64,000 bases of DNA from assembly GCF_023055435.1 (NCBI RefSeq), contig NW_025963913.1, forward strand, positions 5,642,001-5,706,000, in the 5' to 3' direction. Source of the DNA: Haliotis rufescens (lineage: Eukaryota). The notes under the pieces were generated by a model. That model was not told the origin of the DNA and ran no database searches. It was given only the letters and a program-made list of their open reading frames with translations. The position numbers and the translations under genes were made by a program. Shown here piece by piece: positions 13,862 through 58,639 of the stretch (its first letter is position 1; the number at the start of each line of letters is the position of its first letter).

Positions 13862-14970
13862 ATGGGTGAACAGTCAACCATCGATTTGGACAACCGAGAT
13901 CCCAACAACATCAACGACCATTTGAAGGTATATTATTTATGTATCCTTATGTTTACGTATCACTGCATGCTGCCTTTGGATATTGCCGAACTGATTGTTA
14001 GATCAATTAATTGGATACAGAAATCGGACAAGCTTTGTATAACATGTTGTCCTAATGCAAAGACTCGTTAACATTTCCTTGTGAGAAATGAATATGTGCA
14101 CATGACAATGTTTGAATTAGAACTGATAAATTAATTATTACGCAAATGAATGTACAAATGGTGTACACAAGCATCAGTAGACAATATGAAGTAGTTGTTT
14201 CTCTTTCGGGCGAAACATTGTCATGAAGTCTTTTTCATTACGAAAATAATATCATAACTATCCAAAAGAGAACTTCGATAATAACACAATGAAAATAAAC
14301 GCCCTGAAACCTCTATCTTCCTCATTTGTTGATGTGACCTCTTCTACTCCCTTCAAAACATTATGCCAAAACTATACGATTTTAGGCATCATTCAAAATA
14401 CAATACAATACAAATGGATATTTGGTAACACTATGGTACATTATTTATCTCGGGCTAACTAAATTTACCCACTCATGATAACGTAACGATATCGACAAAT
14501 TAACAAATATGTTCATCTGGACAATTATGATTTACTGAGAGTATTTCACAGTATCAAAGAGTGTAGTTCACAGATAATATGACGTTCACACATCAGACAA
14601 CCTAATGTGTCCAAGCTAATGTTTCCTACTTTACAACCCACAGGTCCAGTTTGAGGATGTCTTGGCGGAGCCCGAAGGTGCCCACAGCATTGACTGCTGC
14701 TGGAAGTTTACCAACACTTGCTTCAACTGCGCCTTCAAATGCTGCTACATGTTGATGACCCTGTGTGGACCTATCTACGGTCTCTGCTATGGTTGGCAGT
14801 ACGCGATGCTTGCTTGTTCGCACATTTGGCAGTACACACCACAGATCAGAGCTTGCGAAATCAACTGTGTCATGCTGAGGAAAATATACACCATCTGCCT
14901 CAGCTGCTGCCTGACGCCATTCTGCGAATCATGCGGTGGCTTCTTCAGCAGGATTCAAGTCAAACAGTAA
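13862..14970 (+). CDS. Caveolin-like gene unit 3 (subfamily B, most divergent B copy), 130 aa; exons 13862-13927 + 14644-14970
   Basis: Exon 1 MGEQSTIDLDNRDPNNINDHLK|GTATAT; acceptor acaacccacAG; exon 2 VQFEDVLAEPEGAHSIDCCW...FSRIQVKQ*. AATAAA at 15363. Confidence 0.95.
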
Positions 14971-15447
14971 CACAGAAACTATATTGAACTGTCATGCCAT
15001 TCTTACACAAAGTAAAGTATTATGTAAGTCTAATCCGGATGGTTTTAGCTCACCATGCAATAAGTATTCGGAGCACAGTCAACTATTGGCCCTGTTGGTG
15101 GATCAGGAAGGAATGCTAAACACTGATGTTTTCACATGAAGTCTTCAAGCCTTACAGTGATGTATTTCTTAGAAACGTGAACAACATTTATTCAACTGTC
15201 TAAACCATTATGAAAAAGTTATTCCCATACAAAGTCGCGTGTTTATACATATATTTCACTTGATGAAGAAACACTGAACAGAATTGCCATGTTCTGCATT
15301 TTCGTTTGTGTACCCTGGACATGTATTATAGTGTACATATTTGTATCCACATTTCGTGGATCAATAAACCGTCTTATAAAATACTTTGTTTGTTTTTACT
15401 AACTGATTTATTTAATGAAGATCTTTTACTTTGTTTGAAAGTAAAAC

Positions 15448-15665
15448 CTTTTGTTGTTTAACGCCGCACTCAGCAATATTACAACTATATGAGGGCGGTC
15501 TGTAAATAATCGAACCTGGACGAGACAATCCAGTGATCGACATCATGAGCATCAATCTACGCAATTGGGATATGATGACTAGCATCAACCAAGTCAGCGA
15601 GAGGCTGACCACCCGATCCCGTTCGTCGCTTCTTATGACAAGCATGGGTTACTTGAAGGCGACTT
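15448..15665 (-). mobile_element. SINE-like interspersed repeat (Nin/Deu-domain-like); partial copies near 48930-49040 and 12955-13020
   Basis: Reverse strand cccatgcttgtcataagaagcgac...ggatcgggtggtcag...aatattgctgagtgcggcgttaaacaacaa; tail shared with the other SINEs here. Family name is from memory. Confidence 0.55.
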
Positions 15666-15683
15666 CATTAATGAATATGACGC

Positions 15684-15824
15684 NNNNNNNNNNNNNNNNN
15701 NNNNNNNNNNNNNNNNNNNNNNNNNNNNNNNNNNNNNNNNNNNNNNNNNNNNNNNNNNNNNNNNNNNNNNNNNNNNNNNNNNNNNNNNNNNNNNNNNNNN
15801 NNNNNNNNNNNNNNNNNNNNNNNN
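15684..15824. other. Assembly gap (N run); others at 27154-27283, 41135-41341, 59108-59258
   Basis: Runs of N. Confidence 1.
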
Positions 15825-15984
15825 AAGTCGAGTATGCAGTATACATGTTAATTATTTTCAACAGTAAAGACAAGAAATACTAGTAGGTCAAGAATGACAA
15901 AAATTTGACTGAAGACAGTTTAATGGATTAAAAGGCAGATGACATAATTGTTTTTTCAAATGTTAAGGGCTTACACAGTTTCGG

Positions 15985-16805
15985 GTCAATACCCAAAACG
16001 TCAGTCAATGCCTGGTGTGACCACCATTAGCATTGATCACTGCCACACATCTCCTGTACACTGAGTGGATCAGACGATTTGTGAAGGCCCTAGGGATCCT
16101 CCTGCACACATCCAGAGCAGTTGTAGGGACTGGGCGCACATTGTGCAGACGCCTTTGAACCTCATCCCACAAGTGTTCGAAGGGGTTCAGATCAGGGCTG
16201 AGGGATGGCCACGGATGTTGTGTTGTTGCAGAAAGGCCATGGTAGCTCTGGCAACATGGGGAAGAGCGTTGTCCTGCTGGAAAATGAGTTGTTGATGTTG
16301 TGCAAAAAATGGAACAACGTGGGGTCTGATCACTTGGTCGATATACCGCTGAGCAGTGACGCAGTGTCCCCGACCTTGACCAACATTCAGAAAGCACATG
16401 GGTCCAAGTCTCGCATTAAGTCAAATCATGACGCTAGGTCCACCCCATGGATCCCTTTCCACAACGTTTCTGTCAGCGAAACGATCACCTCGACGCCGCC
16501 AAATTCTGACTCTTCCGTCTGCATGGGAGACACAAAAGCGACTTTCATCAGAGATGATGACACGCCTCCACTCACGATGACACCAATTGTGATGACCCTG
16601 TGCCCACTGAAGTCGTGCTTGTCGATCCCGTAGTTGGAGAACAGGACGACGTGCTGGTCGGCGACATCTGAGGTTGTTGGAGACGTCGGATCACAGTGTC
16701 CCGGCTAATGTGTCGATTATGTGTTCCTATGGTCTGTCGAGCACTTTCACTTGCAGTTAGGAACGGATTTCGCTGGTGTTGATGGGTAAGCTGCCGATCT
16801 GAACC
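15985..16805 (-). mobile_element. Tc1-like transposase relic
   Basis: FQQDNALPH, WPSLSPDLNPFEHLWDE, NGGHTRH; frameshifted. Confidence 0.88.
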
Positions 16806-17751: not shown

Positions 17752-19127
17752 GGTAATGCTAAACAAAAAAGGTAGGGGTATGTTGTTTTGAGGTGAAGCT
17801 ACAGGGGAAAACACCAATATCTGGCAAGGGAAGTAAGTGATTTATGTGGCTTGAACATTTCCGAAGAAATGAAGCTCCCACTAACAACACTGTGGCACTC
17901 ATACGTGACCTCGGACAGCATGTACAAAGGGGTGGTATGCCAGATTAACCATTGTCGCTCAGACTCGGTTGCGAGCAGATGAATATTTTCTTGGAACCAG
18001 TCTTTCAAATACACTTTTTAAACATATTTTATCATTAAGGAAGCAAGAGCATTGATCATGCGACGTTTGCAACGTACTGAACGTTCACGTATCATAAACA
18101 TTTTGCAGGTGGACACATCAGTATATTGTTACCCAAACACTGCATGTTTCTCTATCTGTCATCAGCAGATTTTGAGCCTGATACTAACAAACATATAACG
18201 TCGATGATCGAGGACGGCAACAACGCCAATCCAGGACAGATAAGATTAGTCAGAACGTTGACATAAAGAAATCGGCTGCAAACTGCCACTTAAATAAGGG
18301 ACGGTTGCAACATGCCCGGACGGTGCGACATCGTCTGCACAGATGGTATTTGCGTGCACGACGTCTACGTGTCATCCTACAACTAACTGCACCTCATTTG
18401 AATCAGAAGCGCCAGTGGTGTCAGTAACGTCAGCACTGGGACAATCGCCGTTAGGACGTAATGTCATGATTCCTGACGACTCGAGGAGCACTCTCGACTT
18501 TCATGGCCGAAGGAATCGAGTTTGGAGACATCTTAATGAGCGTTTTATGGACGTAAACGTCGTACAGCATGATCGTTCCGGTGGTGGGTTCATAATAGTA
18601 TGGGTTGGTATCACAATGCCTGGCCTAACTGCGCTCCATAGTGTCCATGACAGAGTAACAGGTCAATACTATCGGAACAACATCATTGCCCCACTCGTGG
18701 TGCCATTTGCACAATGTGTTGGGTAACATTTCACCTATCAAGATGATAATGCACGTGCTCATCGTGCAAGGATTGTGACCTTATACATCCAACAGCAAAA
18801 GAGCCATGTAATACCGTGGCCACCACTCTCAATGAACTCGCTGTTGCTCTCACTGATGACTGGAACAACATGAGCCACGCTTACCAGAAGCATGTCTCAA
18901 AAAATTCTTGCATGTCAGGCAAGAGGTGGCTTTACACGATCTTAGTGACGTCGGCTGCAAAATGAAAAATTTGGACCTCTGACCTCTTTAGAGACCTAGA
19001 GCACCATCTCAACACACCCACCTGTTCCCAAACAGATATGATAATATCATTTCCATTTGCCAATACCATATAGATTAGAAGATACGTCTTGATTATTCCC
19101 ACTATCCCCTACTTTTTATGCATAGTA
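17752..19127 (+). mobile_element. Degenerate Tc1-like element with TIR remnants
   Basis: GGGFIIVWVGIT, QDDNARAH. Left end atgctaaacaaaaaaggtaggggta mirrors right end tatcccctactttttatgcatagta. Confidence 0.8.
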
Positions 19128-19820: not shown

Positions 19821-19842
19821 CACATGACTACTTTGGACCAAT
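19821..19842 (+). promoter_or_regulatory. E-box/M-box (CACRTG)-N11-CCAAT module; also at 13671, 23829, 30003, 34337, 37083, 46249, 50308, 56790
   Basis: Same spacing in 9 units, about 120-225 bp upstream of each ATG, despite diverged flanks. Confidence 0.72.
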
Positions 19843-20009: not shown

Positions 20010-21799
20010 ATGCCTAAACAAGCTGCTGTTGAATCATCCATCGATTTGGAAAACCGAGATCCCAACAACATCAACGACCACTTGAAGGTAAAAACATCGA
20101 AGTTCATAAAATGCGACTTTAACTGATTGATTTGAAATCCTATATTCTGTAGCACGTTGATGTCGTTATGCCTGGGATCGGTGATAGAAGACAAAATGAT
20201 TTTTTTATTAGCAGATAAATATTAACACCAATGAAAATGTTTTAATGATACAAATGAAATAATACTTTGGCAAGAGTAGGCGTTGTCTTTAGCATTGCTC
20301 TGATGGCGATGAATTAAATAAGTTGATAAAGCATTTGTCAAACTCGCCGGGTTCAATTCCCACATAGGTACAATTATGCTAGCTTAATTTAATTTCGCTA
20401 ACTGCAGCGTAAAACAATTTAATTGTCATTGTATGGCTTTCAAGTGACAGTTAAATCCTACCCTTCCATAATGTGTCTCCATAGATTTGGTAATAACGAA
20501 TGTGTCTTTTGTAATAATTGAGGATGCATTTTGGCATTGTCTTAAAACCAAATCCTTTAAATAACATAATGTCTATTCATAATTCACATAAGACACATTT
20601 TTGTTACAGTCAAGCTTTTTAATCAAGGTTTCAGATGAATGTCAATAATGACACGTTTCTTGTCTACATGATGCGTGATGATATCCCGTACTTTGACTTT
20701 AACGATGAGTTTTAACTTCTCTTTACTCACTGGCACTGACTTTAATGGATCATTTACTGTGGTCATGCTTGACATGGTTGACAGCGTGGCGTCGAACTCC
20801 TAAGACGTGGATCATTGCGCATGATGATGATGATGATGATGATGATGATGGCTGGGTTGTCTGGTCCACCCTCAATTGTTTGCAGTATTGCAGTATTGCT
20901 GGGTGCGGCCTTTGGCATCTAATTAACATTTTCTTCTGAAAATGCGTTTGAGTGGCGGGGACTACCGGTAGAGAAGGACATGCTTACCCTTTTCGCGAAC
21001 ACCTGGTGTCATCACTGATTTTCAGCAGTGATCCATTCAAATAATTGTCATCATTATTTTGTGTTTTACACCTCATGGAGATTGCTTATTCTCTGGCGTT
21101 AACGTTTTGAATTTATTATGACACGTCTACAGCTTATCAATTACTATTTAAAAAATGTTCAACTCACGTAAATACAAATAATATATAAAAACACACCAAG
21201 GGTATGATATATTTCAATGTGCGCCTGTCAAATAAAATACAATGATTGGGATAGATGGTCGATGATTATGAAAGTATACACAATGTAAAGAAGCATGAGT
21301 GCGGTACATACATCACATTCATACATGATTTCTCTGACTGAAATACATAACATAATGTAATATGCATATTTTCAATATTTGGATCATAAGTGTAGTTTCC
21401 AGATAATGTGCAGTTCACACATCAGATAACCTAACGTGTCCAAGCTAATATTTCCTACTTTACAACCCACAGGTCCAGTTTGAGGATGTTTTGGCGGAGC
21501 CCGAAGGTGCCCACAGCATTGATTGCTGCTGGAAGTTTACCAACACTTGCTTCAACTGCGCCTTCAAATGCTGCTACATGTTGATGACCCTTTGTGGACC
21601 TCTCTACGGCCTCTACTACGGTTGGAGTTACGCTATGCTTGCCTGTGCTCACATTTGGCAGTACACACCACAGATCAAAGCTTGCGAGATCAACTGCGTC
21701 ATGATGAGGAAAGTGTACACCATCTGCCTCAACTGCTGCCTGACGCCATGCTGCGAGTCCTGTGGTGCTGTCTTCAGCAGGATTCAAGTCAAACAATAA
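20010..21799 (+). CDS. Caveolin-like gene unit 4 (B), 134 aa; exons 20010-20087 + 21473-21799
   Basis: Exon 1 MPKQAAVESSIDLENRDPNNINDHLK|GTAAAA; CAG acceptor; intact exon 2 with signature motif. AATAAA at 22323. Confidence 0.94.
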
Positions 21800-24004: not shown

Positions 24005-25327
24005 ATGGCAGAACAATCGACTATAGATTTGGAGAACCGAGATCCTAACAACATCAACGACCATTTGAAGGTAAATGAATCTATGCTCATATTTATACAT
24101 ATCATCATTTGAATATTAACCTGTAAATTAAAAAGGAATTAATTGATATTAAATATACCGACAAAATAATAAGGGAGCTATAGTTGAGTTAAACATGTAC
24201 AATAATTGTCTGATCACAATGAAATTTCACATCATGCATGCACGTTCACACAGAAGTCAAAGTGTGCGCGCCTGTAGGGAAACAATGTGTGAATCCCATT
24301 TCTTGGGATACTGCTGAAATATTTCTAAACTCACTCACTCACTTTCTCTCGGATATAGCCTTTGTTGTGGTGTTATGATCACAACCGATGTTGAAAAAGC
24401 ATACTATGTTTAAGAAATAAACGACTTGTGGTCGTTGTTTATCGTACAATAAAACACTCCCGAGTGGTTTATTCTCCATGCAGTGTTTTATTGTACGATA
24501 TTCAACGACTACGAGCGTTTATTTCGTATATGAGATATCCACATTATGTACAGCCTCTTTAAGGATAATGTTAAATTGTACAAGCTTTAAAAACATTTAC
24601 CCGACTCCCTCAATAAAATCTAATACTGGCAATGTCGGACAAGTCAATGTTATTTACAGGTGGGTATTTCCCGCATATTCCCACTATCTTCACGTCGATT
24701 ACCCGTGCCTTTTTTCCCAATTCCGATTGTCATATCTCCTCCGCCTTCGAATATCCAGCAATGACGCCATGATAGAAAAAAGTTGTGAAATAAACCATGC
24801 TTTGTTCTTCATTGTTCTTTGCGATGTATCGCGTAGCTATCTTTTATAATGTAATACGACACTTATAACACGACAGAATGTGTTTCCTTTGACTCAAATA
24901 TACTGTAAAACATAATATTGCAAATTTCTAGATGATGTGAATTCACATATCAGATAATCTAATGCGTTCCCGCTAACGTTTCCTATTTTACAACCCACAG
25001 GTCCAGTTTGAGGATGTTTTGGCGGAGCCCGAAGGTGCCCACAGCATTGACTGCTGCTGGAAGTGTACCAACACATGCTTCAACTGCGCCTTCAAATGCT
25101 GCTACATGTTGATGACCCTTTGTGGACCTCTCTACGGTCTCTACTACGGTTGGAGTTACGCCATGCTTGCCTGTGCTCACGTGTGGCAGTACACACCACA
25201 GATCAGAGCTTGTGAGATCAACTGCATCATGCTGAGGAAAATATACACCATCTGCCTCAACTGCTGCCTGACGCCATGCTGCGAGTCTTGTGGTGCCTTC
25301 TTCAGCAAGATTCAAGTCAAACAATAA
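24005..25327 (+). CDS. Caveolin-like gene unit 5 (B), 130 aa; exons 24005-24070 + 25001-25327
   Basis: Exon 1 MAEQSTIDLENRDPNNINDHLK|GTAAAT; CAG acceptor; intact exon 2. AATAAA at 25835. Confidence 0.95.
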
Positions 25328-28192: not shown

Positions 28193-28244
28193 AGGCGATC
28201 AGATCTGAAGGGTTCTAATAATTTGAGCGATGAGATGGTGGGCA

Positions 28245-29489
28245 TTTGGTCTTTAAAGAGGTCGCGGGTCATATTCAATATTTTCATTTGGCAGCCAACA
28301 TCACTAATATCAGTAATAACACTTCTGTTGGTCAGACATGAACAGATTCGTAGAGGCATGCTTCTGATGAGTCAATCATTGTCAGCTTGACTCAGATGTT
28401 CCAGTCATAAGTGAGAGCAACAGTAGTGGGTGGATGTTTACGTTGACCTACACGTCTGCCTATGGTGTTCATCGTCCCAGTGGAGTTCAGTGGGGAAAAG
28501 GTCAGGACTAAGTGCTGGCCGTGGCATGACATGGATGTTTTGCAGTTGGAGGAAGTTGGTCACAATCCTGGCACGATTGAGCGCAGTTAGGCCATTAGGT
28601 CATTATGATACTTCCCCATACCATTATGGACCCATCTCTAAAACGATCATGCTGTACGACATTAACGTCCATACAACTCTCATTAGGAGGTCTCCAAACC
28701 CGATTCCTACAGCCATGGAGGTCGAGATTGAACCTCCATTTGTGAGAAAACCTGACATTATCCCATTGTTGACGTTCCCTACACCACTGTCGCCTCTGAT
28801 TCAAATGAATTGCAGTAAGTTGTGGGATGACACGTAGACGTCGTGCACGCAAATGCCATCTGTGCAGACGATTTCGCACCGTCTGGGCATGTACTCTTAC
28901 CCCAGTTGCCTGTTGCAACCGGTCCCTTATCTGAGTGGCAGTTTGCAACCGATTTCTTAGTGACAACGTTCAGACTAATCTGTCCTGGGCCGGAGTTGTT
29001 GTCCTTGGGCGTCCAGAGTGGCGTCTATCATCGACGTTATGTGTTTGTTGGTATCGGACCCACAATCTGCTGATGACAGATTGAAAAACAGTCAACGTTT
29101 GGGTAACAATAATCTGGCATGTGCCCACCTCAACATGCCTGTGGCACGTAAACGTTTAGCACGTACAAGCGTCGCATGATCAATGTTGTTGCTTCCTTAA
29201 TGATTAAATATGTTCAATAAAGTGTCTTTGAGCGTTTGATTGAAGAAAACAATATGCACCTGCTCACAACCGAATCTGAGTGACAATGATATATCTAGCA
29301 TACCACCCCTTGCACGTGCTGCCCCAGGACACGTGCTTCATGACTGTCACAATGTTGTGTTTGGTAACTTGATTTTTTTCGGAAATAGTCCCTCCACATA
29401 AATCACTTACTTTCACTGCTAGACATTAGTGTGTTTTTCCTCTTGTTTCACCTCAATACAAAATATCCCCTACTTTTAAGCATAGCATA
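28245..29489 (-). mobile_element. Tc1-like relic, same family as 17752-19127 in opposite orientation; terminal piece also at about 36578-36725
   Basis: TVRNRLH...RNRVWR...GSIMVWG peptide; 29100-29489 is the reverse complement of about 17760-18150. Confidence 0.85.
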
Positions 29490-30165: not shown

Positions 30166-31889
30166 ATGGCAGAACAATCTACTATCGATTTGGAGAACCG
30201 AGATCCTAACAACATCAACGATCATTTGAAGGTAAATGAATCTAAGCACATATTCATGCCCACATTATGTGAATATATACCTGTAAATTAAAAGCAGGTA
30301 ATTGTATATCAATATACCGACAAAAAAATAAGGGAGATATAGTTGAGCTAAATATTTACAATAACTGTTTTATCACAATGAAATTTTACATCATGCATGA
30401 ACGTTCACACAGAAGTCAAAGTGTGTCCGCCTTCAGGGTTACTCACAATCACTAAAGATTTCCGTCCAATAACAGGAAGGCTAATTTCAACATCTACCGT
30501 AAAAAACCGGCTCTATGCAGCCCGCCTCAAAATAAGACGTCCTGTGAAGGGTGTGACCCTAACAGCTAACCATGGGCGGCAAGGATTTGGATGGACTAGG
30601 CAACAGGGGTTTGGTGTCACACCATGCAGAAAACGTTGTTGGCGACGTAGCCGCGAGCGGTATTGGCAGGACAACAATTCTTGACGATGATCGGTATGGG
30701 AGCGGGGTTGTGTCATGGTTAGGGGTTTACTTAACATGACAGGCGAACTACTTTTTTGTGTGAATGGACAATTGACTGGCCATCGATATGTTGATGTTCC
30801 ATTCTTCCATTCGCTAGAGTTATCGGCAGAAATTTGTAACTGCAAAATAACAATGCCTGACCACATCGTGCCTAGGTCGTCACCGATTATCACAGACGAG
30901 AAGGCATACGGACATTGTTCTGGTCCGCTAAGCCCCCTGACATGTCCCCAAATGAGCATCCGGGGATGTTCTCGGGCGGGGCGTGTACGCCAGAGACCCA
31001 GCACCCGCCAACGTGGCACGGATTGGGGTAGCTCTTAATGTAGAATGACGGGCAATACCAAGTGCAATCATACGCATGTTGATCAACACTACGCCATCAA
31101 GGTCCATATTGATCTTCAAGTTCAAAATGAGGTTTAGGACATTCAGTTCTTAGACCTTCACTGTCATTCCATCATTTCACTTAGTTTTTGTCGGTAGTAT
31201 ACTTTGATATCTTCATGCCTGGTATGGGGGCATTTCCTTGTGAGAAGCTCATGAACACATGAACACATGCAAACACGACAATGGTTGAATCATTCATGTA
31301 AGCATGTGTCCTATCATTGTTTGAGATGTGTACGCCAGATTGAAAATTACGTACTTCGCTTGAAAAGATAGGTAATTCTATTTTTTCCACCCAGTGTGTT
31401 TCGAGTGATTTGTAATATGACACTTATAATAGGAAAGAATTCAATTCCTTTGACTTAAATATACTGTATGATATGATCATGCATTTTTTTCAGATGATGT
31501 GAATTCACATATCAGATAACCTAATGCGTTCTAACTGACGTTTCATGTTTTACAACCCACAGGTCCAGTTTGAGGATGTTTTGGCGGAGCCCGAAGGTGC
31601 CCACAGCATTGATTGCTGCTGGAAGTTTACCAACACATGCTTCAACTGCGCCTTCAAATGCTGCTACATGTTGATGACCCTTTGTGGACCTCTCTACGGC
31701 CTCTACTACGGTTGGAGTTACGCCATGCTTGCCTGTGCTCACGTGTGGCAGTACACACCACAGATCAAAGCTTGCGAGATCAACTGCGTCATGATGAGGA
31801 AAATATACACCATCTGCCTCAACTGCTGCCTGACGCCATGCTGCGAGTCCTGCGGAGCCGTCTTCAGCAGAATTCAAGTCAAACAATAA
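30166..31889 (+). CDS. Caveolin-like gene unit 6 (B), 130 aa; exons 30166-30231 + 31563-31889
   Basis: Exon 1 MAEQSTIDLENRDPNNINDHLK|GTAAAT; CAG acceptor; intact exon 2. AATAAA at 32515. Confidence 0.95.
30430..31190 (+). mobile_element. Tc1-like relic in the unit-6 intron; same family at 34960-35790 (unit-7 intron) and 54860-55330
   Basis: TVKNRLYAARLK, CWRRSRER; sibling copy has GRGRPKKTTP and WPAKSPDLSPKEH...GHTRY. Confidence 0.8.
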
Positions 31890-34456: not shown

Positions 34457-36474
34457 ATGGCAGAACAACCTATTATCGATTTGTTGAACCGAGATCCTGA
34501 CAACATCAACGACCATGTGAAGGTAAATGAATATATGCTCATATTTACAATAGAATAAAGATAACCTGTAAATTAACAACGCAATTAATTGATTATAAAT
34601 AAACCAACAAATGTTAAGGGAACTAATGTTTTGAATGTAGCTATCGTTGGGGTGGACATGTAAAATACCATGGCGTTGCATCTGAACGCCTCTCTAATCA
34701 CAATGAGATTTCACATCATGTATGCACGTTCATGCAGAAGCCAAAGTGTATACGCCAACAGACGAGATTAGGGGCAGTGGGGTAGCCTAGTGGTTAAAGC
34801 GTTCCCTCGTCACACCAAAGGCCTGGGTTCGATTCTCCACATGGGTACAATGTGTGAAGCCCATTTCCGGTGTCCTCCGCCGTGTAATTGCTGGAATATT
34901 GCTAAAAGCGGCGAAAAACCATACTCAATCACAGCATGCAATCACTAATGCAATGAGCTGAGCACATGCTTAAAAATACCTCCGAGACAGTATCTCAATG
35001 AACAGACAAAATGGAGGTGGGACATGTATCGTCAAACGGTTGAGGCTGCAATTAGACCTGGGCGTGGCAGGCCTAAAAAAACGACACCTAAACAATGTCG
35101 TCTCATTACATTAATTGCCCCACGCAATAGATTGAAATCTTGGCGTTCTGTGAAAGGTGTGACACTAAACAGCTTGGGCTGGGCTAGGCAACACCAGAGA
35201 CCAGCTGTGCGCCAATGGCGTTACACAATGTACAGAGTTCAATCAAGGTTTTGCCCTCGATTCACAGATGGCAGAAGACATTGTTGGCGACGTAGCGGCG
35301 AACGTTATACCAGGGCAAAAAATCTTGAAAGCGGTAGTTTCTTGGTGTGTGGTGGTATCACACATGACAATCTTGTTTTTCTGAATGGACAGTTGACTAA
35401 CCAGAAATAAGGTGACACAAGTTTCGTTCGCTAGAGTTATCGGCCGAAATTTGTAACTGCAAATGACAATGTCTGACCACATCGTGGCCAGGTCGTCAAC
35501 GATTATCACAGACGTGGAGCCATTCGGACTTTGGACTGGCCCGCTAAGTCGCCTGACTTATCCCCAAAAGAGCATCTGAGGGGTATTTCTATGCGGAGTG
35601 TGTTCACTAGAAGACCCAGCACACGCCAACGTGGCACAGATTGGGGTAGCTCTTCAATGGCGGGCAATACCAATACTATCAACACTATACCAACAAGGTG
35701 TCGTGCATGTATCTCCCAACATGCTGGACACACCAGATATTGATCTTCAAGCTCGAAATTAGGTTTAGAGACATCTTCACTGTCATTTCATCAGTTCCCT
35801 AAAGTTTTGCCGGCAGTATTCTTTAATATCTTCATACCTGGTATAGGAACATTTTCTTGTGAGAAGCTCATGAACACATGAACACATACACACACGACAA
35901 TGGTTGAATCATACATGTAAATATGATATTGCATCCCATCATTGTTCGAGATGTGTGTACGCCAGGATGGAAAAGTATATGCTTCGTTTGAAAAGATAGG
36001 TAATTCTATTTTTTCCATCCAGTGTGTTTCGAATGATTTGTACGAAAACATTAAGAAATAATCCTAAACGATAGAGTTTTTCGTATTTTTAGGGGCGGTG
36101 GTGGTTAAAGCGTTCGCTGGTCACGCCAAAGACTCACTTACTTAATTTGGGACATGGCCTTTGTTGTGGTGTAATCATGACAACCAATATTGATTAAAAG
36201 CACACCATATTATATAAAACGACAACTATAATACGACACAATTCGTTTCCTTTGACTAAAATATACTGCATAAAATAGTTATGAACATATTAGATAACTT
36301 GTGCGCTCTAACTAACTTTTCCTCCTTTAAAACCCTCAGCGCCTGTTTGAGGATGACTTTGAGGAGCCCGAAGGTGTCCACAGCATTGGCAAGTCCAAGT
36401 CAAACAACAACGCAATCTCGAACAAGCCTGGCATTCCAAATGGTGAAACATCAGTGCAAAATGGGTCTCGGTGA
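34457..36474 (+). pseudogene. Caveolin-like unit 7: probable pseudogene with internally deleted exon 2 (exon 1 34457-34522; exon-2 remnant from 36340)
   Basis: Exon 1 MAEQPIIDLLNRDPDNINDHVK|GTAAAT is intact. After aaccctcAG the remnant reads RLFEDDFEEPEGVHSIG, then jumps to the gene's 3' end (caagtcaaacaa). About 255 nt covering the scaffolding, membrane and spoke regions are missing and the frame is shifted. Confidence 0.85.
34770..34932 (+). mobile_element. Short tRNA-derived SINE; second copy 39465-39630, degenerate copies near 17157-17275 and 36090-36140
   Basis: GGGTAGCCTAGTGGTTAAAGCG...GGGTTCGATTC head plus body ggtacaatgtgtgaa.cccattt and tail aatattgctaaa.gcggcg.aaaacc. Confidence 0.82.
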
Positions 36475-37259: not shown

Positions 37260-38871
37260 ATGGCAGAACAATCTACTATCGATTTGGAGAACCGAGATCC
37301 TAACAACATCAACGACCATTTGAAGGTAACTGAATCTATGCTTATGTGTATGCACCACATTATGTGAAAATTTATCTGTTAATTTAAAATTAATTGAATA
37401 TTAATACTTTAATATCTTTATACCTCATATATTTCATTTCATATCATTTCTCGTGAACATATGCAAACACGACAATGGTGTTTCATACATGTAAAAATGT
37501 ACCCTATCATTGTTTGAGATGTATGTTCCCCAAATTACATACATCGTTAGAAAAGATACGGAATTTATGGAAGCGTATTATTGCCACAGTCTAACACTAA
37601 CATCTACGTACATAATACTTTCATCTACGTATCGATGTTACTTACCTTTACGTAGATGGTACTATAATCTACGAAGATGGTGTTTTCGGAGACGATTCGT
37701 TTGACTTTCTACCTTTCTAAACATTGCATAAAGTAAATCTTTCAATGTGTTGAAGTTACTTGAGAATGACACACACTCTCTTACAGCCGTAATAAAGAGA
37801 GGAGAGCACGAAATGTTGTCCAAACTACAAGCAAAGAACAATAGGTTATTATTCAAAATTTTAGCGAGGTAATATATCAACCATAACATGGTTAAAGACG
37901 AAGAAATCTCTACTCGAATATGATTTCTCCATAACGGAAATTGGGTTTAGAGGTTAAACTTGAATATGAAGGAGTCATAATCACTCAAACAATGAAAACT
38001 TATAACCTATATCAAACCAATACTCATCATCATCCCATGAAACAATGAAACACTTTTATTTTAGTGTTTGATTGACATTTTGAATGATCTCATGCTCCCT
38101 AACATTTAATTTAATTAACAGTAACTAAGAAAACACCTTTATTTGAAATATTAATGTTTGTTTAAACTAGTATCCAGCTGGGGTCGCAACTAAGTGATGC
38201 AGGTCTCAGGCGTTTGCCAACTTTGTGAAATCCACGAGCACGGGTATGGTGCTGAAGAACCTAAAAAACTTAATAGGAGCTAACCGGGATTCGAACTCAC
38301 GATCATAGGTTTCTGACGTGCCCAAGGCATGCAACTCTACACTGAAATTTGCGGAGCCTTAAACGACTGGAAAAAGCTGATGACAAGTACCAATGTACTA
38401 ACAGTTTAGTTCAATAAAATAAGAAGCAATCTATCCATCTGTATCACTAAATACTCCTTTGACTAAAATATACCGTACAGTACAATTCAGATATCACATT
38501 ACCTAATGCGTTCTAACTGACGATTCCTATTTTACAACCCACAGGTCCAGTTTGAGGATGTTTTGGCTGAGCCCGAAGGTGCACACAGCATTGACTGTTG
38601 CTGGAAGTTTACCAACACATGCTTCAACTGCGCCTTCAAATGCTGCTACATGTTGATGACCCTTTGTGGGCCTCTCTACGGCCTCTACTACGGTTGGAGT
38701 TACGCCATGCTTGCCTGTGCTCACGTGTGGCAGTACACACCACAGATCAGAGCTTGCGAAATTAATTGCATCATGTTCAGGAAAATATACACCATCTGCC
38801 TCAACTGCTGCCTGACGCCATGCTGCGAGTCTTGTGGTGCCGTCTTCAGCAGGATACAAGTCAAACAATAA
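37260..38871 (+). CDS. Caveolin-like gene unit 8 (B), 130 aa; exons 37260-37325 + 38545-38871
   Basis: Exon 1 MAEQSTIDLENRDPNNINDHLK|GTAACT; CAG acceptor; intact exon 2. AATAAA at 39269. Confidence 0.95.
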
Positions 38872-43319: not shown

Positions 43320-44823
43320 ATGGCAGGAATTGATTTGGAAAACCGAGATCCAAACAACATCAACGACCATTTGAAGGTAACAATATTTATACTAATCCAT
43401 GATATTTGCGTATTCAATCCAGGTTTCTCTTATTCGAATCTCTTTCATCAAAAGAAAGTACAAGAGTTTATGAAAATTTGTCGCAAGCTTTTGCTGATCG
43501 TACATCTCCTTAGAATACTGTTTTAAGAAAGTTCATTTGTCACATTAAATTTACTCTGAATTATTTTTTTAATTAGGCCTTTTCTTTAAAAGCCAAGCAC
43601 AGCCAATCTGAGCATACATTTACACTAGGGGCCGGCAAGTTGATATTGGGAAGCTGGAATTCCTTTTTTTTTAAAACAAACCTTATATATTATATACATT
43701 TATATTATATTTTTCCTCAGTTTCATTAAAGAGCGTTAACTGAACTTATTCAGTGTTTAATACTATCAGTATTGAGCTTTAGGGGAGAAAAGGTAAAAAT
43801 TGTTGTACTTCAACTTTCAGAGGCAAGCAATGAAAAAAACAAAAATTTCAGTCGTCAATATGTCAATTTCATTTACGACTGCTGTGTACATAATCTGCTT
43901 GCGAGAAAATTTAAACGTTGAAGGAACAATGTTGGAGTCCGGGTGTTATTCGGGGGTAAGGGTGGTGGGTTGTGTGTGTGTGTGAATCATTCACTTGTCA
44001 TGTCAAGGAACATGGTTGCTCTCCGATATGGGTGTCACTCACTCACTCACTCACAGAGAGAAAGCGGGTGAGTTTGGTTTAACGCCGCTTTGAGGAGTAC
44101 TCCAGTTACATCCCTGCGTTTCATGATGCAGGTTCAGACGTTTACCACGTTAGTACGGGCATGGTGCTTACAAACCTAATAACATAATCGGGGCAAACCG
44201 GGATTCGAACTCATAATCACAGATTTGTGGGACCCAACTCTGTGCAGCAAACTGCATCGCATTAGACGACTGGATCCTCCGTGGCCCCCGATATTACTAT
44301 GAAGCGGATGTACATAGCAATAATATTTGTTACGATAAATGGTGTCGAATCATTGCTTAAACCTATATAATTTATCAATAAGAAACTAAAAACGTTTCCT
44401 TTGACTAAAATAAACTGTAAAATATAATTTACAAATGTAAAAAGTTCACATAACCTAATGCGTTCTAACTGACGTTTCCTATTTTACAACCCACAGGTCC
44501 AGTTTGAGGATGTTTTGGCTGAGCCCGAAGGTGCACACAGCATTGACTGCTGCTGGAAGTTTACCAACACTTGCTTCAACTGCGCCTTCAAATGCTGCTA
44601 CATGTTGATGACCCTGTGTGGACCTCTCTACGGTCTCTACTACGGTTGGAGTTACGCCATGCTTGCCTGTGCTCACATTTGGCAGTACACACCACAGATC
44701 AAAGCTTGCGAAATCAACTGCACCATGATGAGGAAAGTGTACACCATCTGCCTCAACTGCTGCCTGACGCCTTTCTGCGAGTCCTGCGGTGCCTTCTTCA
44801 GCAGGATACAAGTCAAGCAATAA
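43320..44823 (+). CDS. Caveolin-like gene unit 9 (B), 127 aa; exons 43320-43376 + 44497-44823
   Basis: Exon 1 MAGIDLENRDPNNINDHLK|GTAACA; CAG acceptor; intact exon 2. AATAAA at 45168. Confidence 0.95.
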
Positions 44824-46427: not shown

Positions 46428-48015
46428 ATGGCCGAACTTGATTTGGAAAACCGAGATCCTAACAACATCAACGACCATCTGAAGGTAATCTTGTTATAAG
46501 CATAAGTAAGTTTAAGTGAAAAATGCTTTCTTGAATATTTTTGAAGAATAGAAGAGAATATAGTAAAAGAAAACAGAATCCGCACTAAACTCGCTGCAGT
46601 TAACAGAGACTGAACAGTGGAACTGCGTCTGTCACATTCATTGCTTAATTGTTAATTAGGTCCTTTCTTTCAAAAGCAGGTACATTATAGAATAACTGAC
46701 AATTTTAAATTCGACATATCTTGTATGAAATATATTTAACGCTTCTCTTTCCCATTGTTTTTTGGGGGTACGCAAACCCCATTCTTTGCTAAGATTGCTT
46801 GTATAAATACTGGATTAGAAATAGAACTCCAGTATCGTGATGGTCGTTGAACATTTTCAGTGTCAAGGCGGGTGGTAGGGAAAGGAAAGGACATGCTCCC
46901 CCGTTTGTTAAACACCTCGCATAATCATTGCATTATTCAATGATTTGAAAGTGTAGGTGTCTGTGAATGTGTAGCTGCAATCATTGTTTAAGGTGTTTCT
47001 TGTCATGTGACAGAGATACTGGTAGGAATATGTCTGAGGCTCGGATGTTTTAACATAGACTTGTCAGCAAAAGATCGGGTTGAAGTGGCCTCCGTGCGTG
47101 GGTAGGCGTTGATATCCGATAAGTGGCGATAAGTTCAAATGTTTGCTCCTCACATCCCGTCTGTGGCTCTTTTAATTATAAATAATTTTGAAAAGGTGTC
47201 ACTATTGATCAGCTAGTGTATTCATACCAATAACGTGTAATAATTAAGTGTCTTCCATTATGCATCAGCGAATATAAGCTTGAATGATTCTTTACATAAA
47301 AATAATGTATTATAGATAAAATCATGTCATTTGCAATAATGGTTTTAACATTGTTTTTGTAAAACGTTGTCTACTTGATATCAATCGATTGAGGATGTTT
47401 TGGCTGAGGCTGAAGGTGGCGACTGGGTTCAAGTTGTCGCCCTCATTGTCCAATATGTGTCTCCTTCAATGACCAAACAGTTTGTAAATATGTCAGTATT
47501 GAATATCATCGAGTCTTCGTTACAAATAAGTGTGTTTCAAATATCTAAATGTGTTTTCACAGGACATGGGGAAATATAAATACTAATTTGTCTTCACATA
47601 CAATGAAAATAAGCAATAAACGGTGATATATTTTGCATGAATGTTGACAACTGTCGAAGTGTCAAATGTTTCAACTTAATATCATTAGGTCCAGTTTGAG
47701 GATGTCTTGGCTGAGCCCGAAGGTGCACACAGCATTGACTGCTGCTGGAAGTTTACCAACACTTGCTTCAACTGCTCCTTCAAATGCTGCTACATGTTGA
47801 TGACCCTGTGTGGACCTCTCTACGGCCTCTACTACGGCTGCAGTTACGCCATGCTTGCCTGTTCTCACATTTGGCAGTACACACCACAGATCAAAGCATG
47901 TGAGATCAACTGCATCATGATGCGGAAAATATACACCATCTGCCTCAACTGCTGCCTGACGCCATGCTGCGAGTCCTGCGGTGCCGTCTTCAGCAGGATA
48001 CAAGTCAAACAATAA
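46428..48015 (+). CDS. Caveolin-like gene unit 10 (B), 127 aa; exons 46428-46484 + 47689-48015
   Basis: Exon 1 MAELDLENRDPNNINDHLK|GTAATC; TAG acceptor (atcattAG); intact exon 2. AATAAA at 48452. Confidence 0.94.
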
Positions 48016-49189
48016 AAAAGACACAATCTGGAAGTATCCTGGTGTTCTTACACCAAGTAAAACCTCAGCGTAAGACTGATCTGGATGACTCAAGCACACA
48101 CTGACACAATCTTGACTGACACAATCTTGGCCTCCCAGGCGCGCTTGTACTATATAAAGCATTAACGTAAAAATGATATGGGGGAACCTAATACACATTT
48201 TACATGTCGTCTATACGCGAAATGTGTAAGATGCTGAAATGTTCTGGCGCCCATTTCAACCTACATATGTTACATAAAGTAGGAAGACAAATACATCCGC
48301 TCAGTTGTCCAACCAAAGAGGGGAAACTCTGTCATTATATTTCAACTGTTATAATGAAAAGACACCGCCGCGTCCTTATAATTACAAGAATTTGACGTAA
48401 ACAAAATGTGTGTTAAATTGAACAAATTCATATAACCACAATCCTCTGATCAATAAAACGCCCTTCATATGCTTGTTACATTTTTGTGTGTTATGGAATT
48501 ATGACTTTATTTGTGAGGAGACATGACAAAATATTTGGAAGTGACACCATGATACATAACAATTACACGTCACTGTCAAGTTACTATCTATTCACTTTAT
48601 CGAGAGCATATACTGGTGAAAAGCTTTATGTGATGTCTGTGTGAATCTGATACAAAATTGTTTAAACATGAGATACATGTTCATGTATGGACACAATCTG
48701 TTTACAGTGTGCCCTGCAAGACATACACCTTGTTTTTCACTGGGTACGCACACCGCATTATTTTTTCAGATTAACCACAATGCCGGGTGAACGATCGTAT
48801 TTGTATAACCTGAGAACAAAATTATTTTCGGATCATATTATTTTTTACGCTTTTCCCTTTTACTGCTATTAGGTTACTTTGACCCAAACATGTGTGACTG
48901 AACTGAAATGAACTGAACCTTTAACTGAACAGCGAGCCTGGCCACCTGGTGCCGTTAATCGCCTCTTACGACAAGCATAGTCACCTTTTAGGGCAGGCAT
49001 GGCTTGGTAAGACCGGATCTAACCCTGATCTTTATGGGTCACTTCATTACTACTTGCAGACAATTACATGACACAATACAATGTTCGTCGACGATAACAC
49101 ATAACACCAAACTGATTGCCCACGGAAAGACCATGTACAAAGAATGACATCTTCCACAGAGGTTCGTTACATGACTGTCATCACCCAGA

Positions 49190-50531: not shown

Positions 50532-51809
50532 ATGGCCGAACTTGATCTGGAAAACCGAGATCCTAACAACATCAATGACCACTTAAAGGTAAGCTTATAT
50601 ATTTCCATACATTCATGCTAGTGTATTTAAATGAATCAGGGTTTCTCCGTCATCAATAGAGAAAGGAATATGAAGTCGATGGAAAACAAACCGTACATTT
50701 GACATTAATGGACTGATGTATGTCAAGGAATACTCTGCATCGGATCTTTATACCCCAAATATAATCTTCAATGAAAGAATCTGTTAAAGCATTTATTTCT
50801 ATCGAACAGATAGATGTGTGCCCGAGTGACTCTATTTGTATTGTGTAAGCGGTTTATGGAATAATGTTGTCATCTTTTCCCTTCCCAAAGTTATGATAAT
50901 ATTTACGGAGTAAGTTTAATCCATGTAATATGTGCTTGACGATGTCCTAAATTAGAAATGCATAAGCATCAATACTGGTCTCACTTGAATAATTGTGTGG
51001 GTTTTAATTACGTTTTCTGTTACTGGATTGGGCAAAACTTCTAGTGAATTCTTTTTCCACTCGCGACCAGTGGTATGCTACGAGGAAAGGGCATGTTCAG
51101 TCGTTTGTCAGTCACCTTGTGTGATCATGATCGTTATGGCTTAGTTGAAGGTTGTGTGACTTCCATTTTGTAGAATGGTGTCTCTTCGTGTGACAGTACT
51201 AGGGTAGGAATAAGCAGTTGATGATATAATTTACACCTAGGTGAATATCCTTTTCAGTGGGATTGGTAGCCCATGGGTTAAAGTGGTCGCTCGCCATGTT
51301 CAAAGTGTGTCTCTTTCAATTACAAAACATTTCGCAAACGTGCCATTATTGATGTTCAATAGGTTTTCGTTACAAATACGTGTGTTTCAAATATCTTAAT
51401 GCGTAAGTAATAAACGGTAATATATTTTGCAATAATGTTGACAACTGTTAAAGTGTCAAATGTTTCAACTTAATATCATTAGGTCCAGTTTGAGGATGTC
51501 TTGGCTGAGCCCGAAGGTGCACACAGCATTGACTGCTGCTGGAAGTTTACCAACACTTGCTTCAACTGCTCCTTCAAATGCTGCTACATGTTGATGACCC
51601 TGTGTGGACCTCTCTACGGTCTCTACTACGGTTGGAGTTACGCCATGCTTGCCTGTGATCACATTTGGCAGTACACACCACAGATCAAAGCCTGTGAGAT
51701 CAACTGCATCATGATGAGGAAAATATACACCATCTGCCTCAACTGCTGCCTGACGCCATTCTGCGAGTCTTGTGGTGCCTTCTTCAGTAGGATACAAGTC
51801 AAACAGTAA
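50532..51809 (+). CDS. Caveolin-like gene unit 11 (B), 127 aa; exons 50532-50588 + 51483-51809
   Basis: Exon 1 MAELDLENRDPNNINDHLK|GTAAGC; TAG acceptor; intact exon 2. AATAAA at 52219. Confidence 0.94.

Positions 51810-52577: not shown

Positions 52578-52660
<83 letters not shown>
52485..52660. repeat. (TTAGTG)n grading into (GT)n microsatellite
   Basis: Directly visible. Confidence 0.92.
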
Positions 52661-52663
<3 letters not shown>

Positions 52664-52686
52664 AGTCCGGACTAATGCCGATTTAA

Positions 52687-54755: not shown

Positions 54756-55429
54756 TTAATAGTTCTAGCCCACTGAGATAAAATACCACAATTTAACATG
54801 ATTACCCCACTCAAATACAGTACACTAACTCCGATCACATGACAGGCGTACTGATTCAATTATTGCGAATGGATATTTGACTGGTCAGCGATATGTTGAC
54901 GAAAGTTTGCGTCCTGTCGTTCTTCCCCTCGCTAGAATTATCGGCTGAAATTTTGAACTGTATGATGACTATACGTGACCACATCTTATCCAGATTGTCA
55001 CCGATTATCTCCGATGAGAAGGAATACGAACATTGGACTGGTCCGCTAACCCCTTGACATGTCCCCAATACAGCATCAGCAGGATGTTCTCGGACAGAGG
55101 ACGTACGCCAGAGACCCAGCACCCGCCAGTGTGGCCTGGCTAGGGTTGGTCTTCTTGCGGAATGGCGGGCAATACCAAAGGCAACCATATGCAAGTTGAC
55201 CAACAGTATGTCATCAAGGTTTTGTGCATATATCGCCCGACATGATTGACGCATCAAGATATTGATTTGCACGCCGAAGATTTAGATATTTATCGTCATT
55301 ACATCTTCACTATCATTTCATTAGTTCTCTTCTTTTATGTCGGTAGTGTTTTTATTGTTTTTTAGATGACTTGAACTGGTAGTTTCTACACTATTTCTAT
55401 TTCTTACAAGATATGCAAGATATGAGGTC

Positions 55430-56150
55430 ACGCACTCAAACACACACAAATCATACATAAGCACACAGGCACAAGCAAACACACACACACACACACACAC
55501 AGCGCACACGCACAAACACATACACCCACACCCCCGAACACAAACACACAAACATTCACAAACATACACACATAAACACGCAAACACACAGACAGACACA
55601 CACACGCACACATACATACACAGACACACACATACACACAGAGACACACACACAGAGACATACACAGACACACATACACATACCACAGGTACAATGGAAA
55701 ACGACATTTAGTGCAAGAGGAGTGAACTACATTAGATGTAATTTATTTATTTGAATAAATAAATGATGTATTTTTCATGTATCTTTAACCCATATTTTGT
55801 ACGAATATTGAATATAACTCAAATATTGAGTATATTTTTAACGATGTAGAATGAGGTTGGGGATTTTCTAAAAAGCGAATAGTACCTTCTGTTCTGAAAT
55901 AGAAATGTTGACTGGACTGAAACTATATGTATGTTTTGAAATGCTCACACACAGACACACAGACACACGCACGCACGGACGTACGCACACACACACACGC
56001 ACGCACACACACGACCATCATACACTCACACCACCAACACCACGCACACACATTCATACACACACCCACACTCACACCAAAACAAGAACAAGAACAAGAA
56101 CAAGAAAAACAACAAGAACAAGAACAACAACAACAACAACAACAGCAATA
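55430..56150. repeat. Two imperfect (CA)n tracts plus (CAAGAA)n/(CAA)n
   Basis: Directly visible at 55430-55690 and 55945-56150. Confidence 0.9.
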
Positions 56151-56970
56151 AAGCAAATGCAACACACATCCCCGAATATTAAATGAGCGGCCTTAGAACC
56201 CTAAACAGTCTTTTCAAGTCGCATAACTCTGAGGTCTTTGTGGTCTTATGTCTCTTAATAATGTTATAACTTGGGGTTTCTTTTCAAATCTAGTGACCCA
56301 AATTCAATGTCACAGTATTTTTAAAATTAGTTCTCAGCTTTTAAGCATGCCCAAATTACACAACAAATTCAAACACCTTGAACAGGTTGGTGAATGGCTC
56401 GACAGCAGCGAGTGCAAACTGTCACTTTGTTATCTTCAGACATTATTTGTCGAATATGTTACTGTATGAGTACGCTTGCAGCGTAACGTCCCATGCTTGT
56501 TTTAGCTAATGCTATACAGTTTTAGCTGAGCTGGGTGGTAGATAGGCCTGTGCCTTACAAAGTCTCACTGACAGAAATTGTAAGCACTATTCGGAAAAGC
56601 ACAAAAGAATCTATCAGATTTATTCAAAAGTCCATGCTGGGATCTTCAATGAAATAACAATTCCCATAGTAAAGTGAATGGTTATTAATAGTATCTACAA
56701 ACTGTGCTCCGTCGTCACTATGGGCACAGACATAAAGATTTCAATGCGTTCTGCTGTAGGGATCTCATGACGTTTTCACTGCAGTGAACCACGTGTCACC
56801 TTTAGACCAATGTCAGAGAGCCTTATTTACTGAATCTGAAGTTAGGGCAGTGTAAGGCCCTGTTACTATGTAAACATATACATAATGGACGTCATGACAG
56901 TTTTTGCGACACTCTGCTTCTAACAGCTTTGGCAAAAAGATCTGCTGCCCCAAAGCCTTCCGCAGTCAAA

Positions 56971-58639
56971 ATGGCTGAAATTGATTTGGAGAACCGTGAT
57001 CCTAACAATATCAACGACCATTTGAAGGTAAACTTTTGGGCATAAAGTTATAAAAGCGTGATTTAAAGTTTCCATTAGTTATTGGTTTTTATCCCCCGCC
57101 AAACAAAGTTGGCGGGGGATATAGAAACGGGCTCCGTCCGTCCGTCCGTCTCGTTTCGTTTCCGGAGCATAACTTAGAAACCGTTCAATATTTTTTCATC
57201 AAACTTTGCAGGTCTGTCAGGTACATATTGAACTGGTGCCTTTTGCTATTTAAATTTTTTTGAAATTTTTATTTTTTACGTTTCCATGGCAACAAGATGG
57301 ACTTTGGTTCTGTGAGGTAAAGGTTCGTTTCCGGAGCATTACTCATAAACCGTTCAATATTTTTTCATCAAACTTTGCGGGTTTGTCAGGTACATGCCGA
57401 ACTGGTGCCCTTTTGCTATTTAAATTTTTTTGAAATTTTTATTTTTTACGTTTCCATGTCAACAAGATGGACTTAGGTTCCAAACTCTTCTTTTATTTAC
57501 AATTTCCATGACAAATTCCACCTCGGTTAAAAAAGGTTAGGGTTTGTTTAGATTTATTTATGTCATAAATTCTGCAACAGGGGCGGGGGATATAGCCACG
57601 ATAGTGGCAAACTCTTGTTATTCTTGTGTTTATTTTTGTATTCTTGAGTATGTGGCATTTGATTGAAGTGCCTAAACAAACAGAGCGTGACCTGATCGAG
57701 CTGTGAGAAAATATTAAATGATGTTACTTTTTCAGAATGTTTCATTAATGTTCCCCTTCGGAAAATATACATCTTCATGGATTAACTACCTTTGTATATT
57801 AGGAAACGAATGAAAAGAGGGGGTTAGTAAGTGAGTTATAACAGTCTTATGGGGTAAGAGGTAAATGATGCAGAATTTGTACCCATGAGAACGGGTTTGG
57901 TACTGTCAAGCCACGATCATAGGATTCTTGCACATGGAAGGGAAACAACCAACTCAGCGAATGCCGCGCGACGCGCTATCCGTGCCCGATAAAGGAAAAA
58001 AGAACATAGATTTGTAAGATATTCAAATTAAAAGATTAAACACGTACTCACAGCTTTAGCCTCAGCATACTTTATCACGGACTTTGTTTTTGCACGTTAG
58101 GTTATCGTTTTTACAGACAAAACATGTTTAAGTACGTTTGTACCTGATTAGGGGATATTCAAATTTCTTGGTTACAATAAACGTGCCAATCATGTGCACT
58201 ATACCTTTTGAAATAGTGTCGATATTATATTGTCATTAATCTAGGCATGAGTGAAGTATGAGGTGTGAATCAAATGTGTCCTAACTAACGTTCTGCTATC
58301 GCAATCCAACAGGTCCAGTTTGAGGATGTCTTGGCTGAGCCCGAAGGTGCCCACAGCATTGACTGTTGCTGGAAGTTTACCAACACATGCTTCAACTGCG
58401 CCTTCAAATGCTGCTACATGTTGATGACCCTGTGTGGACCTCTCTACGGCCTCTACTACGGTTGGAGTTACGCCATGCTTGCCTGTGCTCACGTGTGGCA
58501 GTACACACCACAGATCAGAGCTTGTGAGATCAACTGCATCATGATGCGGAAAATATACACCATCTGCCTCAACTGCTGCCTGACGCCATGCTGCGAGTCC
58601 TGTGGCGCTATCTTTAGTAGGATACAAGTTAAGAAGTAA
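56971..58639 (+). CDS. Caveolin-like gene unit 12 (B), 127 aa; exons 56971-57027 + 58313-58639
   Basis: Exon 1 MAEIDLENRDPNNINDHLK|GTAAAC; CAG acceptor; exon 2 ends FSRIQVKK*. AATAAA at 59004. Confidence 0.95.
57086..57619 (+). mobile_element. Helentron-associated non-autonomous element (HINE / DINE-1 / pearl-like) in the unit-12 intron
   Basis: T-run; 5' atcccccgcc...ggcgggggat inverted repeat; (TCCG)n; two tandem core repeats of about 170 bp; 3' subTIR ggcgggggatata; GCCAC-gata-GTGGC hairpin; ends in TT. Confidence 0.8.

Follow-up and report, generated by a model that had tools for sequence, protein, structure and literature searches.

A tandem caveolin array in the abalone Haliotis rufescens whose second exons form a patchwork, probably through occasional gene conversion

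The subject of this analysis was a window of 64,000 nucleotides from the abalone Haliotis rufescens (assembly GCF_023055435.1, contig NW_025963913.1, positions 5,642,001 to 5,706,000), which contains a head-to-tail array of two-exon caveolin genes and lies within an old tandem caveolin cluster of Haliotis. All coordinates below are those of the window, and all genes are on the forward strand. The second exons of one group of these genes, subfamily B, form a mosaic in which a limited set of variants recurs in many combinations, and ectopic exchange of some kind between the copies very probably explains it. The best account, which we consider probable, is an old tandem cluster in which exon 2 has become a patchwork by occasional gene conversion, with purifying selection holding the protein. 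Exchange, most likely gene conversion, is well supported by an excess of conflict between sites, by low divergence at four-fold degenerate sites (four-fold divergence), and by identical tracts of 90-92 bases in neighboring subfamilies.

Nine intact subfamily B genes lie inside the window: unit 3 (13862-14970; exon 1 13862-13927, exon 2 coding 14644-14970), unit 4 (20010-21799; exon 1 20010-20087, exon 2 21473-21799), unit 5 (24005-25327; exon 1 24005-24070, exon 2 25001-25327), unit 6 (30166-31889; exon 1 30166-30231, exon 2 31563-31889), unit 8 (37260-38871; exon 1 37260-37325, exon 2 38545-38871), unit 9 (43320-44823; exon 1 43320-43376, exon 2 44497-44823), unit 10 (46428-48015; exon 1 46428-46484, exon 2 47689-48015), unit 11 (50532-51809; exon 1 50532-50588, exon 2 51483-51809), and unit 12 (56971-58639; exon 1 56971-57027, exon 2 58313-58639). 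Their exon 2 copies, of 327 bases each, are all open and preceded by AG acceptors, any two of them differing at 10-37 bases. The initial annotation had counted nine near-identical copies, which is correct inside the window, but the subfamily has 11 intact members, units 13 and 14 being situated past the window end (exon 2 starts equivalent to 65981 and 70576).

Every variable motif listed in that annotation was recovered, and about 20 residues recur in many combinations across the copies, the commonest changes being conservative (I/V, R/K, L/M/F). Codon 61 is ATT in units 3, 4, 9, 10, and 11 and GTG in units 5, 6, 8, and 12, a two-base change, and together with an R/K site it provides all four combinations: I/R in unit 3, I/K in unit 4 (which also has V81), V/R in unit 5, and V/K in unit 6. 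The two sites, described as seven codons apart, are codons 61 and 69, that is, eight apart with seven codons between them. The combinations had further been taken to argue against recurrent mutation, and while they are real, that conclusion does not follow from them, since R/K is a one-base change (AGA/AAA) and a site mutating twice would suffice. Moreover, V/K is carried by unit 6 alone and, inside the window, I/R by unit 3 alone.

Conflict between informative sites was assessed in the 11 B copies at 33 sites, one per codon, against clonal simulations under a general time-reversible (GTR) model (GTR+G), a codon model, and GTR+I+R3. The proportion of conflicting site pairs was 0.519, compared to 0.29-0.31 in the three clonal nulls, and none of 900 simulations reached the observed value. 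Hypermutation of CpG was considered and rejected as a sufficient cause, because the excess persisted without CpG-context sites (0.499, reached by 6 of 900 simulations); among transversion sites the value was 0.549 (again 6 of 900). The pairwise homoplasy index (PHI) test, one site per codon on 11 copies, gave p values of 0.004 (w 25) and 0.015 (w 50). Trees of three exon segments had no splits in common, whereas clonal simulations shared 8.2 on average, none of the 60 going as low, and approximately unbiased tests rejected five of six cross-segment trees, with segment borders that were picked after seeing the data. Codon 52 (CAG/AGT) or codon 61, when paired with codon 78 (CTG, TTC, ATG; the TTC of unit 8 is also found in units 13 and 14), gave three four-combination pairs among the 11 copies, and three such pairs, with both sites differing by at least two bases, were reached in none of 600 simulations under models lacking multi-base mutation.

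Identical tracts between otherwise differing copies were also evident. Units 5 and 12 are identical over exon positions 143-227 (25143-25227 and 58455-58539), a tract spanning 23 consecutive polymorphic sites, with a global permutation p of 0.0024 among the nine window copies. By the same measure a tract of units 8 and 12 gave p 0.024, and two others p 0.055, among them that of units 12 and 10 (58525-58600 and 47901-47976), which includes a CGG codon 79 unique to these two units. The signal is diffuse, consisting of many short, overlapping exchanges and not of one event or breakpoint.

The mosaic could in principle have formed without any exchange, if duplication were recent, the tree star-like, and purifying selection combined with repeated mutation at tolerant sites. 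The B exon tree is indeed star-like, with internal branches making up 26% of its length, and at a mean synonymous divergence (dS) of 0.24 homoplasy is to be expected, the clonal simulations themselves placing about 30% of site pairs in conflict; R/K is, in addition, a single transition. This account is nevertheless largely refuted, and we regard it as very improbable, given that no clonal simulation attained the observed conflict, that the excess outlasts removal of CpG sites, and that the units, with their unalignable flanks and unit-specific residues in common with H. asinina, are old, yet their four-fold divergence is only one third of saturation.

The relevant values come from a comparison of exon and flank divergence, the initial annotation having pointed to near-identical exons amid introns and untranslated regions (UTRs) that barely align. 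This was confirmed: in the 36 of 55 pairs with barely aligning flanks (mean z below 4) the four-fold divergence was 0.216; five pairs whose flanks align well gave 0.123, and different subfamilies compared with each other 0.52-0.76. The sharpest low cases were units 11/13 (0.13) and 13/14 (0.10). Codon bias was rejected as the cause of the low dS, as the divergence expected at saturation from codon usage, 0.68, is far above that observed. GC-biased conversion is not claimed, four-fold GC showing no excess (0.53-0.63 vs 0.61); GC content at third codon positions was 0.63-0.70 in subfamily B and 0.56-0.68 elsewhere in the cluster, a lone copy on another contig having 0.50.

Neighboring subfamilies display exchange more cleanly than B. 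The pairs E1/E2 and C1/C2 are 16% divergent in exon 2, yet are identical over stretches of 90 and 92 bases, respectively, in its 3' half (permutation p 0.0002). Synonymous differences in the E pair numbered 2 of 49 inside the tract and 17 of 32 outside, and in the C pair 0 of 42 and 16 of 39, both tracts having been chosen post hoc. A peptide search between E1 and E2 found no exon 1, so that E2 may share the exon 1 of E1 or be without one. The four D copies (D1-D4) differ by one to four residues and a few synonymous changes, while most of their intron pairs are unalignable.

Subfamily A consists of A1, with exon 2 at 2008-2340 and exon 1 a little upstream of the window start, and A2 (5523-8290; exon 1 5523-5579, exon 2 7958-8290). 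Their second exons differ at 10 bases in six codons, amounting to five amino acid differences and one synonymous difference in 110 codons (1 synonymous difference in 101 codons), and their introns align in short patches only. In codons 56 and 75 no base is shared, with near-identical sequence around them. Both copies here have S at a residue that is A in the two H. cracherodii copies, yet three of the five A1/A2 differences are kept, the A2-specific C56, L57, and T75 (M/M/Y in A1) being common to the A2 genes of H. rufescens and H. cracherodii. This pattern is the mark expected of conversion after speciation, although one copy of each state occurs in H. rubra and the single residue is therefore not proof.

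The comparison of subfamily B across species was made on proteins only and took in 15 of 34 cluster members, eight with an H. cracherodii record and three H. asinina proteins being compared. The exon 2 proteins of units 3 and 4 are identical to P0009 and P0010, records titled for both H. rufescens and H. cracherodii. The six other putative orthologs in H. cracherodii show 17 residue differences, of which 14 are states of another paralog here, and such pool states would account for 3.5% of all single-base missense changes. This is only suggestive of species-specific changes being shared by B paralogs older than the species split, the orthology of units 5, 6, and 8 being uncertain. The B units are old: the private residues of unit 12, I100 and K108, and the block I44/C48/Q52 of units 3, 13, and 14 also occur in proteins of H. 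cracherodii and H. asinina. Unit 12 has F22 and I81 here, as opposed to C22 and V81 in the two other species, and I81 falls within the tract identical to unit 10, which suggests a transfer from unit 10 to unit 12 in this lineage.

The flanks of the B units add a further kind of conflict. The last 78 intron bases of unit 10 (47609-47686) match unit 11 at 91% and unit 8 at 49%, while the first 85 bases of its 3' UTR (48016-48100) are 61% identical to unit 11 and 86% to unit 8, unrelated 85-mers giving 46 +/- 5%; the disagreement noted in the initial annotation was thus reproduced. Unit 9 is nearest to unit 11 upstream and to units 5, 6, and 8 at the intron end, and unit 3 has an intron end 90% like that of unit 4 and a mid-exon like that of units 13 and 14. 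Unit 7 (34457-36411), the single pseudogene among 12 B units, retains exon 1 (34457-34522) and an exon 2 remnant of 49 bases (36340-36388), about 255 bases having been deleted inside the exon and the remnant joined to its last ~23 bases. The remnant has 7-15 mismatches to intact copies, compared to 2.9 among intact copies, which would fit an escape from exchange but also a loss of selection. After the deletion (36340-36411 region) unit 7 resembles the AAG (K103) of unit 5, unlike the AGG of most copies.

Switching flank affinities in units 10, 9, and 3, together with the birth and death evident in unit 7, are what would be expected if unequal crossing-over were the main agent, reciprocal recombination in exons giving chimeric genes with mixed 5' and 3' flanks and gains and losses of copies. 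Against this, the identical tracts inside the exons of units 5/12, E1/E2, and C1/C2 are flanked on both sides by divergent sequence, the A pair has been kept at two copies in four Haliotis species while its copies have species-specific residues in common, and at least five B units have recognizable counterparts in H. cracherodii, suggesting a stable layout. Unequal crossing-over is therefore unlikely as the principal process, though some of it probably added to the chimeric flanks.

Several results weigh against gene conversion. The PHI test on 11 copies gave p 0.19 at w 100, and on the nine window copies it was borderline, with p 0.06-0.21 at one site per codon and 0.03-0.15 for all sites, the former being preferred because two-base codon changes inflate the all-site values. 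A triplet scan (3Seq-like) found none significant after Bonferroni correction over 990 triplets (best 0.64), and incompatibility showed no clear rise with distance (Mantel p 0.15). The null models include neither multi-base mutation nor site-specific amino acid preferences, and they fit imperfectly, over-predicting variable sites (82-84, and 120 for GTR+I+R3, vs 69 observed). The cross-species data are from proteins, with orthology assigned by exon 1 and private residues instead of synteny; the I/V site is variable in the arrays of limpets and clams too, which marks it as tolerant, so the count of 14 in 17 is inflated. Lastly, conversion and unequal crossing-over are not fully separated by these data, and non-reciprocity was not seen directly.

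Errors of assembly were also considered, since wrongly mapped reads or collapsed haplotypes could have put errors into the consensus and so made mosaics. Contigs of four sequencing runs were compared (X1, X2, X8, and X9, of which X1 may be the source sample). V/K is known from unit 6 only, and in X2 and X9 the listed GTG-bearing contig passes the R/K site with one difference. In X1 and X8, by contrast, this contig stops exactly before the R/K site, as is expected if both letters follow. A further 112-base contig of X2 (31713-31824) carries the letters of unit 6 except at codon 61, where it reads ATT, and none of the 11 copies has this combination; it is either an allele or an assembly-graph chimera and is only a hint of polymorphism, because contig building can merge paralogs. 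Reading an ATT at codon 61 of unit 6 as a variant of that unit was rejected, as unit 9 matches unit 6 there save for two bases, and the contigs of the four runs cannot tell alleles from paralogs. Records of H. cracherodii contain the other three combinations (I/R, I/K, and V/R), the copies differ at 10-39 bases, and the unique flanks are covered by four runs with 0-6 differences per long piece, all of which makes an origin in consensus errors extremely improbable.

The initial annotation had proposed gene conversion generating combinatorial variants. The mosaic and ectopic exchange were borne out by the recombination tests and the cross-species proteins, and the second part fits as a description but not as a function, inasmuch as the ratio of replacement to synonymous divergence (dN/dS) is low, the proteins of units 3 and 4 recur unaltered in H. 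cracherodii, and exchange mainly homogenizes. Diversifying conversion, with selection for new residue combinations, is known from genes of the major histocompatibility complex (MHC), self-incompatibility, resistance (R), and immunoglobulin systems, with pseudogenes as templates, according to section 3.2 of PMC3924837, and in abalone it might, for example, vary the composition of mixed caveolin discs. The likeness to those clusters lies in the many paralogs and in new haplotypes that would be drawn from a common variant pool, and it is strengthened by the reuse of some 20 residues, by putative orthologs that differ mostly by pool states, and by the X2 contig, if that is not a chimera. The difference is that the abalone genes lack an excess of replacement changes, pseudogene donors, and a known recognition surface, and change slowly between species. 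The nine window copies form 36 pairs, every one with a whole-exon dN/dS between 0.05 and 0.29 (about 0.14), the commonest replacements are the conservative ones, the H. cracherodii counterparts of units 3 and 4 show no change, and the sole pseudogene is without the variable part of exon 2 and so cannot act as a donor. Selection for diversity is unlikely, and there is no sign of a purpose-built diversity generator.

The genes belong to the caveolin family. The three exons scanned matched Pfam Caveolin (PF01146) at 93.5-118.6 bits, for a cut-off of 25, and a full-length member aligned to residues 47-172 of human caveolin-1 (PDB 7SC0) without large gaps (E 2.4e-23), suggesting that it has the pin, hook, scaffolding, and spoke regions. 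The signature motif FEDVLAEP, corresponding to human residues 68-75, occurs in all 11 B copies (as FEDILAEP in one), and several window proteins match public H. rufescens records titled caveolin-1-like or caveolin-3-like. A search of the genome gave 23 caveolin matches, 22 of them on the contig of the window, and the fetched neighborhood held two subfamily A genes, 11 intact subfamily B genes, and nine more exon 2 copies (C1-3, D1-4, and E1-2), the 11 non-B copies lying within about 155 kb. In a protein search, subfamily B had no relative outside Haliotis above 54%. A divergent, lone caveolin lies on another contig, outside the cluster (L017 5746-6069), and is 34% identical to unit 5. A public H. 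discus discus record (P0002) is B-type, but the seven residues that normally follow its signature motif stand about 50 positions downstream, probably through an error in the record.

In contrast to the shuffled remainder of the exon, certain sites stay different. All six fixed differences between units 3, 13, and 14 and the other eight B copies fall within 27 bases, codons 44-52 (14773-14799 in unit 3; p 0.001), with four differing codons in a span of eight, while ten polymorphisms elsewhere in the exon are common to both groups. Unit 3 is about 50 kb from units 13 and 14, and its intron sequence is unit-4-like. Proteins of H. cracherodii and H. asinina carry the same I44/C48/Q52 residues, the alternative state being L/Y/S. 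Judging from this pattern, and from that of the A pair, these residues are likely kept different because selection rejects their conversion; an alternative for the island is an ancestral block that was never converted. PMC3924837, which describes a model of Teshima and Innan, treats a peak of divergence, as in exon 5 of the human red and green opsins, as a sign of selection against conversion. Clustered amino acid differences that persist across species are seen likewise here (B codons 44-52; A codons 56-57 and 75), with the difference that selection on the caveolin residues is indicated by pattern only, and A1/A2 would be the cleaner case of the two.

By alignment to 7SC0, codons 44, 48, and 52 correspond to human residues 110, 114, and 118 and are spaced i, i+4, i+8 along one face of a predicted helix; residues 110-118 are at the start of the spoke region as it is defined in PMC12330381, and the shuffled residues fall mostly in that region (human 108-169). 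The same source reports that 11 protomers make up a caveolin disc and gives a prediction for one hybrid complex, from which mixed-subunit discs are plausible. One could speculate that discs are assembled from mixed subunits, that conversion keeps the 11 B paralogs compatible for assembly, that separately regulated copies set tissue mixes, and that selection keeps two types of disc surface (I44/C48/Q52 and L44/Y48/S52), making the array a combinatorial code for membrane-disc properties that was repeated independently in limpets and bivalves, but such a scheme is doubtful at present.

The process that we favor, then, is gene conversion that would copy short tracts, of tens to about 100 bases, between exon 2 copies. 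Selection, seen in the low dN/dS, may keep the exon similar enough for ectopic pairing, whereas introns and UTRs would drift out of alignment, as they have, and presumably leave the exchange. Overlapping tracts from many donors would redistribute a small pool of tolerated variants, the residue combinations being a by-product of incomplete homogenization, and a few residues would remain different across species where selection rejects their conversion.

Other features of the window include an inverted pair of ~1.2 kb (17768-19011 and 28231-29477, ~76% identity) that lies between units and probably represents two copies of a mobile element, and minisatellites at 698-1037 (period 23, 15 copies), 10180-10954 (period 45, 17 copies), and 60648-61358 (period 32, 22 copies).

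Old duplicates held similar by the exchange of fragments, paralogs that share species-specific changes, and patchwork trees are features of concerted evolution of tandem paralogs as summarized in PMC3924837, the difference being that exchange in abalone is largely within one coding exon of 327 bases with unalignable introns, while in the opsin example the introns are homogenized. Tandem animal arrays of other families, the protocadherin clusters (PMC1852091) and Drosophila cuticular protein arrays (PMC2793513), have also been reported as homogenized by gene conversion. What was found here is a known textbook process in a new instance, a little-studied caveolin expansion, and no paper on such caveolin arrays was found in the openly available literature searched, subscription papers being outside the search.

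Vertebrates have few caveolins (three). The abalone proteins resemble other caveolins (PF01146, 7SC0, and PMC12330381) in a Pfam match far over the cut-off and in being alignable to the human protein, and differ in being short (127-134 amino acids), cysteine-rich, and encoded by about 22 tandem copies in one cluster. Separate, lineage-specific sets exist in limpets and clams: near-identical caveolins were seen in the limpets Patella and Lottia and the bivalves Dreissena, Ruditapes, and Mercenaria (P0004 and P0007 clusters), those of Patella caerulea carrying neighboring locus tags. Unless conversion is taken into account, phylogenies of these genes, the dating of their duplications, and the mapping of reads to them will be misleading. 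As a process the mosaic itself is unsurprising, and the islands that have not been homogenized are of more interest, since the residues resistant to conversion provide a short list of positions that possibly distinguish caveolin subtypes.

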